Translations under genes and position numbers: made by a program
In this document: one piece after another, positions 24,705 to 27,344 of the stretch
Numbering within the stretch: the first letter of the stretch is position 1
Layout: the number at the start of each line of letters is the position of its first letter
Notes under the pieces: model-generated
What the model was told of the DNA's origin: nothing
Databases searched by the model: none
What the model saw: the letters and a program-made list of their open reading frames with translations, nothing else
Source: Acinetobacter bereziniae
Lineage (GTDB): Bacteria > Pseudomonadota > Gammaproteobacteria > Pseudomonadales > Moraxellaceae
Length of the DNA stretch: 32,000 nucleotides
Assembly (NCBI GenBank): GCA_009912575.1
Contig: WNDP01000005.1
Coordinates: 30,500 to 62,499 of the forward strand
Direction: 5' to 3'

Positions 24705-24810
24705 GTCCACATGTGGACGTGTTTTCAATAATACTTGCATTTTTGCATGCAAATATTGTGCATGCATATATGCTTGTGGTAAATTGATAAAAATGCATTT
24801 ATGCATGCAT
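24705..24810. promoter_or_regulatory. divergent promoter/operator region with palindromes
   Basis: GTCCACATGTGGAC (24705-18), TTTGCATGCAAA (24742-53), TGCATGCA (24759-66), ATGCAT (24792-97), ATGCATGCAT (24801-10). Confidence 0.55.
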
Positions 24811-25096
24811 GTCTTCAGAGTCTCAAATTGGGCTGGAATTTATCATAATGAGCATAGTTACTTTTAAAAATAATCTTGATTTTATACAAGCCGCTTTCAA
24901 TCAGATTGCCAAAATAGTTGCCGAGCATGGTCATCCTTGCCTAGACGTATGCTGTCCTGCTGAATCAACAGAACAATGTCTTGAACATTTGGCTGTCGTC
25001 GCAAATGACTGGTCGTATGACTACTCACTCATTGATGCCCACCTAGAAACTTATAAAAAAGCCAATGCTGAAATTCGTGAATATTTAGGAGAGTAA
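24809..25096 (+). CDS. hypothetical protein upstream of the replication initiator
   Basis: 95 aa (or 82 aa from the ATG at 24848). His/Cys cluster HGHPCLDVCCPAESTEQCLEH. The stop lies 1-4 nt before the Rep start. Confidence 0.5.
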   Translation: MSSESQIGLEFIIMSIVTFKNNLDFIQAAFNQIAKIVAEHGHPCLDVCCPAESTEQCLEHLAVVANDWSYDYSLIDAHLETYKKANAEIREYLGE

Positions 25097-25097
25097 G

Positions 25098-26549
25098 GTG
25101 ATGGACAAGGCATGTGAACTGATTAATCAAATCCAAGACTTCGATATAAATATTAATCAACTTACAGAGGTCTATGAACACTCTAATTCCATCATGGATG
25201 AAATTGTCTTAGCTGCTACATACTCAGAAATTGATCTTCGTGTTTGTCAAAATCTTAAAGATTATTTGAATGGTATTGTTCAGAACAAATTGAACCATTG
25301 CCAACAGCTCATCGCTAAAAAACAGAAGCAACCTCAAGACAATTCAGTTATTCAAACCTTTGAACATAAAATAGCCAAAGTGTTGGTAAACACGGCAGAA
25401 TCAACTGCCAAGCATGATGTTCAACCCCCAATTTATAATATGGGGGTTACGGATTCACAACAGGCATCTGAACAATGGGCTTTTCCAAGATATTTAGATA
25501 ACCACAAGATTATCTCTACAGGGAAAGGCATTGTTCCAGTACCAATTGCTGCAAAGGTCGATAATGGTATAGCTGGTATAGATTGGGTGAGCTTCAGCAT
25601 TCCTTTATCACGTTTCCATGAAAAATATTCTTCTCTTAATCCTTTGGTTGAGGATGAGGCTCTAACTGAATTACTCGAATCTATTATAGATCAAGAACTC
25701 TTTGAGTTATTTGGATTTGGTCTAGGTCAAAAGCGTGATAAAGGCATGCACTTCAATAAATATGCCTACACATTACAGGATGACTTAGGCATGGTTCTGT
25801 ATGGCAATACTCAAAAATCTATTATTGTGCAAATCAATGGTTCAGGATGTGCGCTTGCCCGTAAAGGTTGGAATGAACAACTTTATAAATATTTAAAACA
25901 AATCAAAGGTTCAAAGCTTTCTCGTGTAGATATTTGCTTTGATGACTTTGAGGGTGAATACATCACCCTAGATGAAGCTGATCAATGGGATACGCAAGAA
26001 ATGTTTTGGGTTTCTGGTCGTGTTCCTGATTCAAGACATGCTGGTAATTGGAAACGTCCCAATGGAAAAGGACGTACTTTATATATCGGTGTTCGTGAAA
26101 GTGGTAAATCTTGCCGAATTTATGAAAAAGGTAAAGAAAAGGGTGATGCTTTAAGCGAATGGGTTCGTATTGAAGTCGAATTTAAAGCGAGTGACCGTTA
26201 CCTAGAATTAGAAATATTGCTCTCACCATCACAATATTTTATCGGTGCTTACCCTGTATTTAATGAGATCTTATTACCAAGATTAGGGCAATACATCATG
26301 CCTGAAAAGACTGAAATCATTAAAAAACAATCACAAATCGAATGGAAAAAAGCTATCGAAATTACCAAAAGCCAATTTGGTAAATACATTCGCCAGTTCC
26401 GAAAAGTCTATGACGATTCTGAATTACTTACCATGCTTTCATCTTCTAAAGATGAAGTACCAAAACGTCTGAAATTCTCTGCAATTGCAGCAATGCAAGC
26501 CGTTCGTATTAATCAACCAATTTATGAGGAATTAGCTCATGCAGTTTAA
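25098..26549 (+). CDS. rolling-circle replication initiator, Rep_trans / RstA-gpII-like
   Basis: 483 aa. RVDICFDDF, LYIGVRESGKSCRIYEKGKEKG and WVRIEVEFKA match the Rep_trans (PF02486) pattern seen in CTXphi RstA. AGGAG lies 8 nt before the ATG at 25101. Confidence 0.88.
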   Translation: MMDKACELINQIQDFDININQLTEVYEHSNSIMDEIVLAATYSEIDLRVCQNLKDYLNGIVQNKLNHCQQLIAKKQKQPQDNSVIQTFEHKIAKVLVNTAESTAKHDVQPPIYNMGVTDSQQASEQWAFPRYLDNHKIISTGKGIVPVPIAAKVDNGIAGIDWVSFSIPLSRFHEKYSSLNPLVEDEALTELLESIIDQELFELFGFGLGQKRDKGMHFNKYAYTLQDDLGMVLYGNTQKSIIVQINGSGCALARKGWNEQLYKYLKQIKGSKLSRVDICFDDFEGEYITLDEADQWDTQEMFWVSGRVPDSRHAGNWKRPNGKGRTLYIGVRESGKSCRIYEKGKEKGDALSEWVRIEVEFKASDRYLELEILLSPSQYFIGAYPVFNEILLPRLGQYIMPEKTEIIKKQSQIEWKKAIEITKSQFGKYIRQFRKVYDDSELLTMLSSSKDEVPKRLKFSAIAAMQAVRINQPIYEELAHAV

Positions 26550-26826
26550 AACAACTATTACCGTACTTGGAGCAAAGAGTTCAAAAGGTGAGTTCAACGG
26601 TAAACCGTATGATTCAACAACAATCTTTTTCCAAGCTGAATTACAAGATGGGGACAATTTTGTTGGTCAAGTGGGTGAACAAATCCGCTGGGGTACATCT
26701 GCCAATTTTGAAAAGTTAAAAACTTTGAAATTTCCATTGAATGCAGAAGCAACAATGGAGCAGGTGAGTAACGGTAAATCAATGGTCACAATCTTAAAAG
26801 ACCTTGTGCCGCAACTACAAAAATGA
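26539..26826 (+). CDS. putative ssDNA-binding protein (gene V / RstB analogue)
   Basis: 95 aa. Overlaps the Rep stop by 11 nt. Position, size and a KG..NGKPY...F beta-rich pattern resemble Pf3/Ff G5P OB-fold proteins. Confidence 0.55.
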   Translation: MQFKTTITVLGAKSSKGEFNGKPYDSTTIFFQAELQDGDNFVGQVGEQIRWGTSANFEKLKTLKFPLNAEATMEQVSNGKSMVTILKDLVPQLQK

Positions 26827-26915
26827 GTTGTTTAGTTTATAGCTGTAATAGATGTGGTGCGTATTTCTTTTATGAAAATGTACTGAAACATCATGAAAAA
26901 CAATGCAATGGATAG
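26823..26915 (+). CDS. 30-aa micro-ORF with C-X2-C-X12-H-X3-C zinc-finger spacing
   Basis: Its ATG overlaps the TGA of the upstream gene (ATGA). MSCLVYSCNRCGAYFFYENVLKHHEKQCNG. Below the ORF-track length cutoff. Confidence 0.4.
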   Translation: MSCLVYSCNRCGAYFFYENVLKHHEKQCNG

Positions 26916-26926
26916 GAATTTAAGAA

Positions 26927-27112
26927 ATGCACGTCTGCAAAACTTTATCACCGCAAAATGAGTCAGGTTTGCAAACGTGCTTGGAATGGCAGGAACAAAA
27001 ACCGTTCTTGCCAAATTTAACGGTACAGCAAGCCGACCAAATGTTAGTCGCAATCGTGGGCTGCTTTGCCGTTGTTTTCATCGTCAAGCAAGTTATCAGC
27101 TTGCTTAAATAA
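26927..27112 (+). CDS. small membrane protein (possible minor coat, pVII/pIX position)
   Basis: 61 aa. AGGA 10 nt upstream. C-terminal TM segment MLVAIVGCFAVVFIVKQVISLL. Lies between the ssDNA-binding and major coat genes. Confidence 0.4.
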   Translation: MHVCKTLSPQNESGLQTCLEWQEQKPFLPNLTVQQADQMLVAIVGCFAVVFIVKQVISLLK

Positions 27113-27122
27113 TGAGGTTTAT

Positions 27123-27344
27123 ATGGAAACTCAAGTTAAAGAAAAAAACAAGGCTCTACCTGTTGCTTTGGGTACAGCATTAATGGTTGCAACTGGCTCT
27201 GCCTTTGCTGAAGGTGATTTAGCAACTGGTGCAACAACTGCCATTAGTGGTGGTTCATCTACACTTCAAACAGTTGGTATTGCCATTATTGGTGTAGTTG
27301 CTGGTGTATGGGTCATTAAACGTGTGATTGCATTAATTCGTTGA
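27123..27344 (+). CDS. major coat protein precursor (pVIII-like)
   Basis: GAGG 5 nt before the ATG at 27123. The 73-aa precoat has a signal peptide ending GSAFA/EGD. The mature ~44 aa has an acidic N-terminus, hydrophobic core IAIIGVVAGVWVI and basic tail KRVIALIR. Confidence 0.8.
   Translation: METQVKEKNKALPVALGTALMVATGSAFAEGDLATGATTAISGGSSTLQTVGIAIIGVVAGVWVIKRVIALIR

Follow-up and report, generated by a model that had tools for sequence, protein, structure and literature searches.

A conserved, unannotated micro-gene for a free-standing CCHC zinc finger of predicted classical type in filamentous prophages of Acinetobacter

The Ff phages encode, between the genes for their single-stranded DNA (ssDNA)-binding and coat proteins, the proteins pVII and pIX, which are about 30 residues long, have overlapping start and stop codons, and are essential, hydrophobic membrane and virion proteins. 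In the Pseudomonas phage Pf4 the 30-residue protein PfsE (PA0721) adjoins the ssDNA-binding protein PA0720 and binds PilC through conserved aromatic residues (PMC8764522), and in the RS1 satellite phage of Vibrio cholerae the gene for RstC follows rstB, its product binding and inactivating the repressor RstR (PMC3545932). The C(P)XCG proteins of Haloferax volcanii are zinc-finger micro-proteins of a single domain (PMC6562870, PMC11241148). Papers on Acinetobacter filamentous phages (PMC11209303, PMC12285184) make no mention of zinc. Here we describe an open reading frame (ORF) of 30 codons at positions 26823-26915 of a 32,000-nucleotide stretch of Acinetobacter bereziniae DNA (contig WNDP01000005.1; the whole stretch is called the window below), which encodes a single predicted zinc finger and nothing else. 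The surrounding 7 kb or so form a filamentous (inovirus) prophage of Acinetobacter, and the ORF is a real, conserved and unannotated gene.

The spacing of a classical zinc finger, which the initial annotation had read in this ORF residue for residue, is exact in the window peptide: Y6-x-C8-x2-C11-x3-F15-x5-L21-x2-H24-x3-C28. Every position agrees with the classical C2H2 pattern except the last ligand, which is Cys and not His. The motif goes beyond chance, since its strict form appears in none of 300 block-shuffles of the window. Related peptides share the pattern C-x2-C-x11-12-H-x3-C and a CxxCG knuckle, which takes the form CPxCG in the groups of relatives that we call B and C; these two groups have 11 rather than 12 residues between the second Cys and the His, and some group B members carry a Pro in the helix region. 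A Gly two residues past the last ligand is also common to the family and occupies the position of the H-T-G helix cap, a comparison that rests on the canonical TGEKP linker of classical fingers.

The predicted structure agrees with the pattern. A model computed by AlphaFold2 (AF2) from an alignment of 25 sequences, with a predicted local distance difference test score (pLDDT) of 85.8, has strands at residues 6-7 and 14-15 and a helix at residues 18-27, a ββα arrangement. Nearly all of its 50 best Foldseek matches in the PDB are ββα fingers of C2H2 or C2HC type, including ZNF32, CTCF, Aart, the C2HC finger of KAT6A/MOF, KKT2 and optineurin. These superpose with root-mean-square deviations of 0.5-0.7 Å over 22-27 residues and with probabilities mostly of 0.8-0.99, the E values of 0.2-1 marking the limit of so short a query. 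In a library of viral structures the best matches came from C2H2 proteins encoded by giant viruses and by haloarchaeal tailed viruses, a free-standing protein of 39 residues from Halorubrum tailed virus 4 being among the top ones.

Profile searches point to the same class from below the accepted thresholds. The window peptide scores 17.3 bits against DUF7128 (PF23447), for which the cut-off is 25.7, and 14-15 bits against three C2H2/C2HC models, one of them zf-C2H2_4 (14.9 bits, cut-off 27). Among 25 family members, Pfam matches at E ≤ 0.1 were obtained to DUF7128 for 12 (best E 3.9e-5), to zf-C2H2_4 for nine (0.0029), and to zf-C2H2 (0.0019) and zf-MYST (0.028) for six each, and every score of every member lies below the gathering cut-offs. 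In control genomes DUF7128 finds matches in H. volcanii, Methanocaldococcus jannaschii and E. coli, above the cut-off in one of them, and the name 'DUF7128' is absent from the searchable literature. PHROGs gave nothing better than E 0.007 and NCBIfam nothing better than E 0.001, with scattered, unrelated zinc-ribbon models. When a profile of the family was compared with the PDB it matched Aart, ZBTB17, BCL6, a consensus finger and CTCF with E values of about 0.02-1 per finger, the overall values being small because many fingers are summed; the CCHC fingers of optineurin matched at E 0.03-0.17. Against 1.84 billion representative proteins the same profile retrieved mostly multi-finger proteins, again through summing, together with three true short members of 35-46 residues, one of which occupies the same slot on a different contig that bears Zot. 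We conclude that the finger is, by its pattern and predicted fold, of the classical type with CCHC ligands, and that by curated thresholds it belongs to no named family. The ββα finger with Cys as fourth ligand that the initial annotation had proposed is thus supported by the sub-threshold Pfam scores, by the PDB profile matches, and by the AF2 model with its Foldseek relatives.

Relatives were fetched through the protein encoded immediately upstream, which gave three loci from the same genus, 11 from species representatives (all Acinetobacter apart from one labelled Brevundimonas) and 63 from IMG/VR; individual loci are cited below by their L numbers. About half of some 85 related Acinetobacter inovirus loci have a homologue in the same slot, with C-x2-C, H-x3-C-x-G and a stop codon, and with loci found later the family comprises 33 different peptide cores and, at the DNA level, 34 different versions. 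In an alignment of 25 distinct peptides (A2), C8, C11 and C28 never vary, 23 peptides have H24, and the last residue is Gly in all except one, a paralogue. The neighbouring H23 is replaced by Gln or Asn in relatives, which identifies H24 as the predicted ligand. The Brevundimonas-labelled locus (L012), on a contig of 6.2 kb, has an Acinetobacter-type inovirus module that shows 63% identity in the upstream protein and has no finger gene; its label may reflect contamination or a wider host range.

Comparison of the relatives by conservation and by the ratio of nonsynonymous to synonymous substitution rates (dN/dS), which had been suggested as a check, shows that they keep both frame and ligands, contrary to the outcome that the initial annotation had named as refuting its reading. 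In a close group of loci, whose upstream proteins are 93-99% identical, the conserved residues persist through synonymous change: C11 is encoded by TGT in seven sequences and TGC in five, C28 by TGC in seven and TGT in five, H24 by both CAT and CAC, L21 by four different Leu codons, A13 by three codons, and F16 by TTT and TTC in equal numbers. Family-wide, the terminal Gly uses all four GGN codons. By the pairwise Nei-Gojobori method (NG86) dN/dS in frame is 0.14 (dN 0.104, dS 0.739), and the values for the whole family in its two spacing classes are 0.18 and 0.28. Four of the five control frames give 0.76-1.31; the fifth, the codon-antisense frame, gives 0.27, a low value that is expected because third positions are mirrored. 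For the upstream gene, at the same loci of the close group, dN/dS is 0.038. Purifying selection at the protein level therefore acts on the finger ORF. Where the close group does vary, it does so at helix positions 17-20, 22, 23, 27 and 29 and at hairpin positions 5, 7, 9 and 10, with residues 11-16 fixed, and by eye the helix variants show no clean correlation with the p61/coat module downstream (Table 1).

The family extends beyond the phages that share this upstream gene. A degenerate DNA pattern (C-x2-C-G-x-Y-F ... H-x3-C-x-G-stop) in two spacings was used to scan all 2.9 million IMG/VR contigs, and matched nine and 12 contigs, all of inovirus size (4.6-15.8 kb), for a rough chance expectation of about 0.05 matches (17 fixed and eight two-fold positions, with some 1e11 bases assumed). 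The newly found contigs have a different Rep and a different or very divergent gene in the position of the ssDNA-binding protein (SSB), with the finger still directly after it and before a p61-type gene. In L098 a group A finger keeps its ATGA start behind a protein about 33% identical to that of the window, and in L100 (523-639, + strand) a divergent member (…ECPICYTIIYQGTLFKHISLCKG) overlaps the end of a 107-residue SSB-position gene in a second, unrelated inovirus on a contig of 15.8 kb. At least five types of upstream gene precede the finger (A1, MKFTTESVITGAK, L083/L088, L087 and the second element of L100). The order SSB-position gene, finger, p61 thus survives replacement of both neighbours. 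That gene callers miss the ORF, which the initial annotation had called invisible to a cut-off of 60 residues, is confirmed by the absence of ten out of ten exact member sequences among some 15 billion predicted proteins, and we found no description of the family in the searchable literature.

Two proteins of related appearance were noted in passing. An Acinetobacter-type inovirus (L085, 388-588, + strand) has, upstream of its Rep module and in a regulatory position, an ORF of 66 residues ending in FITCSICGKTITKNSMVRHFFTFH, a finger-like sequence of C2H2 type (C-x2-C-x12-H-x5-H). A 28.5-kb metagenome contig (L080, 5001-5186) encodes a protein of 61 residues containing a pair of CCHC fingers in the same style (YSCGNCGAEF…HMKRC and YECGKCGATF…HKKKCEGN), located between AAA_15/AAA_21 ATPase genes and a gene for a protein kinase of 1212 residues, which is not an inovirus context.

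The finger gene is accessory and dispensable. On a tree of the upstream protein with 57 non-redundant rows it is present in 27 and absent from 30, and the trait needs at least nine changes, at least five of them forced by well-supported branches. The slot between the upstream gene and p61 may be empty, with a gap of 13 nucleotides (for example in L012, L014 and L067-L078), or hold one finger gene, or a tandem of two joined by ATGA (L006 3096-3310, the same as L002 1845-2059), or a finger gene with other small genes (L005, L018, L022, L033, L059). In L005 the tandem appears to have been fused or deleted into one gene, with the MANMKY N-terminus of the first finger and the body of the second. 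Alternative cargo includes a conserved protein of 70 residues (MTWRRSAYGYQTL…NEHRCFR), which is ATGA-joined to the upstream gene and followed by a short ORF (MNIDVLDEDGASNI…) (L037, L041, L048, L058, L060, L061, L064), proteins of 104-145 residues (L005/L030, L031, L028), and a membrane protein of 59-63 residues (L018, L059, L063). Compared with the window, the phages of the close group have DNA identities of 83-94% across the upstream gene and 75-97% across the finger gene; over the next 100 nucleotides the identity is 23-32% in some of them and 67-81% in others, which places the finger gene at a recombination boundary. No dif-like site was found in the slot of the window or of the finger-bearing loci. 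The only one is in L029, which has no finger: it lies 105 nucleotides after the upstream stop codon (GTTTCGTATAA-TGTATA-ATATGTTAAAA) and has four arm mismatches to the dif site of the window.

Table 1. The finger gene, its predicted functional residues and the neighbouring genes in the window.
Feature	Positions	Strand	Details
Rep_trans initiator	25098-26549	+	PF02486, phrog_453
95-residue gene with predicted OB fold, SSB position	26539-26826	+	phrog_4994, E 2.8e-37
ATGA overlap	26823..26826	+	ATG 26823-26825 shares bases with upstream TGA 26824-26826
Finger ORF	26823-26915	+	30 codons and TAG; single CCHC finger, predicted classical type; peptide MSCLVYSCNRCGAYFFYENVLKHHEKQCNG
Zinc knuckle C8-N-R-C11	26844..26855	+	codons TGT AAT AGA TGT; predicted ligands 1 and 2
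H24-E-K-Q-C28, on predicted helix	26892..26906	+	predicted ligands 3 and 4
C-terminal Gly30	26910..26912	+	conserved; matches in position the Gly of the H-T-G linker cap in classical fingers
AGGAA, Shine-Dalgarno-like motif of p61	26914..26918	+	overlaps finger TAG; 9 nucleotides from AGGA to ATG at 26927
61-residue protein (p61), C-terminal membrane segment	26927-27112	+	phrog_13391, E 9e-32; phrog_4644 'tail protein', E 3.7e-7
Major coat protein precursor	27123-27344	+	PF05356 Phage_Coat_B, above cut-off; phrog_18198, E 3.6e-45
TspB-like adsorption protein	27388-28614		PF05616
DUF2523 protein	28618-28899		PF10734
Zot	28986-30011		PF05707

The neighbours of the finger gene are listed in Table 1. 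For the upstream protein of 95 residues an AF2 model (pLDDT 89) shows an oligonucleotide/oligosaccharide-binding (OB) fold, whose best solved matches in Foldseek are the OB folds of bacterial SSB and PriB (probability 0.99-1.0, E about 5e-3); by sequence no solved protein was matched. It is likely to be the ssDNA-binding protein of the phage, ssDNA binding being expected from the modelled fold, and its position suggests a functional analogue of Ff gene V and of CTXφ rstB. The 'G5P-like' label that the initial annotation gave it needs qualifying: by fold the protein is SSB/PriB-like, and homology with Ff gene V is not demonstrable. A p61 homologue followed by the coat gene occurs in nearly every related locus among those listed, and p61 is likely to be a small virion or assembly protein of psh or pVII/pIX type. 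When the 3.5-kb module was compared by blastn with 50,697 GenBank phage records, nothing matched. One other strict match to the finger motif exists in the window, at 24706-24867 (+ strand, CKYCACIYACGKLIKMHLCMH), and was rejected, there being no start codon before the motif; it derives from dense palindromic repeats of TGCATGCA/ATGCAT type between divergent regulatory genes, in a divergent promoter region, and these repeats are probably operator sites and not coding.

The start codon of the finger overlaps the stop codon of the upstream gene, as the initial annotation had stated, and the same overlap recurs in two further subfamilies: a -3 overlap is found in relatives of group A, group C and L044, and behind the divergent upstream gene of L098. 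The 22 nucleotides before the finger ATG contain no Shine-Dalgarno-like motif. Overlapping members in general have none, whereas AGG or AGGA stands upstream of most homologues that lack the overlap. We presume from this arrangement that ATGA is a site of termination-reinitiation coupling. No promoter-like or terminator-like sites were found flanking the finger ORF, which accordingly lies inside the Rep-to-coat operon. Folding of 26790-26940 as RNA gave no unusual stability (z = -1.2), so that the conservation does not stem from a structural element in RNA or DNA.

How might such a peptide act? We tentatively read the ORF as an accessory micro-gene of a CTXφ-like filamentous prophage that encodes a cytoplasmic zinc-finger binding module with a protein partner, a reading that we hold to be plausible if a little short of probable. 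The 30-residue micro-protein would fold around one zinc ion, held by C8, C11, H24 and C28, into a ββα finger. The conservation of these ligands supports zinc binding indirectly, with the His-to-Tyr variants described below as a caveat. Ribosomes that terminate on the upstream OB-fold gene would restart at the ATGA, the finger having no ribosome-binding site of its own, and finger synthesis would then track that of the upstream protein during phage replication. A cytoplasmic location may be assumed because there is no signal or membrane segment, and a small binding module because this is a single finger without basic flanks: members have a net charge of -1 to +3, an isoelectric point of 4.8-9.0 and no basic tails. 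Binding would use the invariant aromatic strand G12-A-Y-F-F16 and the variable face of the helix, and the partner would most likely be a protein, of host or phage, which the finger modulates. On its own and lacking basic flanks, one finger is a poor binder of duplex DNA, and most of the CCHC variants of this fold that have been studied bind proteins or have a structural role. In the close group the variable positions of helix and hairpin lie next to the invariant aromatic strand, and PfsE and RstC, from the same map position in other filamentous phages, both act on proteins. A protein partner is therefore somewhat favoured over single-stranded nucleic acid, but the data cannot separate the two.

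Single-stranded nucleic acid, or a complex of ssDNA with the OB-fold protein, is a possible partner that we consider rather unlikely. The aromatic residues Y14, F16 or H16, and Y17 would stack on bases, in the manner of retroviral CCHC nucleocapsid knuckles, and the finger would tune replication, translational repression, integration at a folded-ssDNA attachment site, or packaging. The phage genome is itself ssDNA, the finger lies directly downstream of the SSB-position gene in at least five backgrounds of upstream gene and Rep, the ATGA overlap with the upstream gene is found in three subfamilies, the aromatic content is high (17-29%), and a Y-[FL]-[FH] strand is kept in most subfamilies (exceptions include L033, L044 and L059). 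On the other hand, a gene that is missing from 30 of 57 non-redundant relatives is dispensable, its products lack basic character and are in some cases acidic, no conserved structure of RNA or DNA was seen around it, and the slot also holds unrelated cargo, so that the position may mark only a permissive module junction. Several observations also weigh against the binding module with a protein partner. The constant place of the finger, always directly after an SSB-position gene of one of at least five types, suits a link to ssDNA at least equally well. PfsE and RstC are unrelated to it in sequence and fold, and the analogy with them is positional only. AF2 has learned from thousands of fingers, is biased towards this very common fold and may impose it on any matching pattern. 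Finally, prophages of A. rongchengensis (L004 1800-1902/L013) have a Gln-to-stop change in mid-gene, with the codons downstream still recognisable, and His24 has changed to Tyr in two independent lineages (L026 3285-3377, and L051/L052, at 3031-3129 of L051); these alleles imply that phages can in some settings do without the ligand set or without the whole gene. The L026 finger also carries C3F.

The remaining explanations fare worse. On one of them translation of the ORF merely relays ribosomes to p61 or unmasks its ribosome-binding site, the peptide having no function. The ATGA at the 5' end and the finger TAG, which overlaps the AGGAA before p61 and lies 11 nucleotides ahead of its ATG, fit this, but a relay would not keep Cys, His, Gly and the core through synonymous change or give dN/dS of 0.14-0.28; in many relatives, moreover, p61 follows the upstream gene after 13 nucleotides, and in L018, L022 and L059 further genes stand between finger and p61. 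The protein-level purifying selection rejects a pure relay, which we judge very improbable. Its size and its map position, that of gVII/gIX between the ssDNA-binding and major coat genes, could make the finger a minor component of the virion that corresponds, at the tip of the filament, to Ff pVII/pIX. The initial annotation had noted that the ORF occupies the pVII/pIX slot and yet is not hydrophobic. Both points hold, in that it precedes the coat gene and a hydrophobic run of 12 or more residues occurs in none of the family members, but the role falls more plausibly to p61, which has a hydrophobic segment and is present in nearly all the relatives listed, the finger being an extra that about half of them lack. 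A reduced Cys/His zinc site also suits the cytoplasm and not the periplasmic side of the assembly site, and we find a virion role hardly credible. Equally hard to credit is that there is no gene here, the ORF being due to chance or the real gene being one of 73 residues read from the other strand (26832-27053). In favour one may cite how short the ORF is, that it lacks a Shine-Dalgarno motif and that gene callers passed it over; against this stand the outcome of the shuffles, the retention of frame and ligands in 33 distinct sequences, and an in-frame dN/dS far below that of four of the five control frames, the codon-antisense frame alone being also low. The same selection argues against a chance ORF and against the minus-strand ORF, a candidate that we reject on its dN/dS and that starts with TTG and runs across two plus-strand genes.

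A more specific proposal, which goes beyond the binding module with a protein partner and which we consider improbable as it stands, is that the fingers act in trans, with the ssDNA-binding protein of the phage or on a host target, as a lineage-specific and fast-diversifying family of free-standing fingers that controls superinfection, induction or ssDNA handling. Possible targets would be the type IV pilus machinery, the prophage repressor or a defence sensor. If this were true, no functional single classical finger would have been described from a bacterial virus before, and the family would offer a minimal natural finger of 28-30 residues with a biology of its own. PfsE and RstC control superinfection and induction, and a like function here would bear on how prophages shape the behaviour of Acinetobacter. 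Whatever its partner, a fold regarded as typically eukaryotic is here, by prediction, the complete and selected product of a gene in bacterial ssDNA phages, at the junction where the filamentous phages of Acinetobacter exchange modules and accommodate cargo. Gene callers systematically overlook proteins of 30 residues, and this one is small enough for synthesis, making folding, metal binding and partners directly testable.

The family can be compared with several known systems. With classical C2H2 fingers (PF00096, PF13894) it has in common the CxxCG knuckle, the Gly after the last ligand and the predicted fold; the window peptide also follows the spacing Y-x-C-x2-C-x3-F-x5-L-x2-H-x3-(C), from which groups B and C depart by one residue. 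It differs in that the finger is the whole protein, of 28-40 residues, with no array, TGEKP linker or basic flanks, in that the fourth ligand is Cys, and in that a bacterial ssDNA phage encodes it. Its pattern fits that of the C2HC/CCHC variants (MYST, PF17772; NEMO/optineurin), and KAT6A and optineurin are among its best fold matches; a resemblance to UBZ4-type fingers may presumably be added, although no UBZ family of Pfam is among the matches.

Among small proteins of filamentous phages the likenesses are of size and place. PfsE resembles the finger in these respects only: it is hydrophobic, resides in the inner membrane, carries a YxWGW motif and lacks Cys/His ligands, whereas the finger has neither that motif nor the hydrophobicity. 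RstC is likewise a small accessory protein encoded right after an ssDNA-binding gene, in a dif-integrating element of CTXφ type, but it is larger, unrelated in sequence and not a zinc finger. Compared with Ff pVII and pIX, the finger is hydrophilic and dispensable, and p61 fits their role better.

The haloarchaeal micro-proteins are of a similar kind. They too are free-standing single zinc-binding domains of less than 70 residues, often with CPxCG, and DUF7128 is the most frequent Pfam match of the phage family; most of those in Haloferax are, in contrast, Cys4 zinc ribbons with two CPxCG motifs, where the phage family has C2HC ligands and a predicted ββα fold. The 39-residue C2H2 protein R4TFX2 of Halorubrum tailed virus 4 (HRTV-4), one of the top fold matches, is free-standing as well, and differs in host domain and virus type. 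This precedent qualifies the view, expressed in the initial annotation, that a single free-standing finger would be unusual in a phage: viruses do encode them. Free-standing one-domain zinc-finger micro-proteins are thus a kind already known from haloarchaea and their viruses; what is new is a family of such predicted fingers in bacterial filamentous phages, with a fixed place after the SSB-position gene and invisible to annotation.

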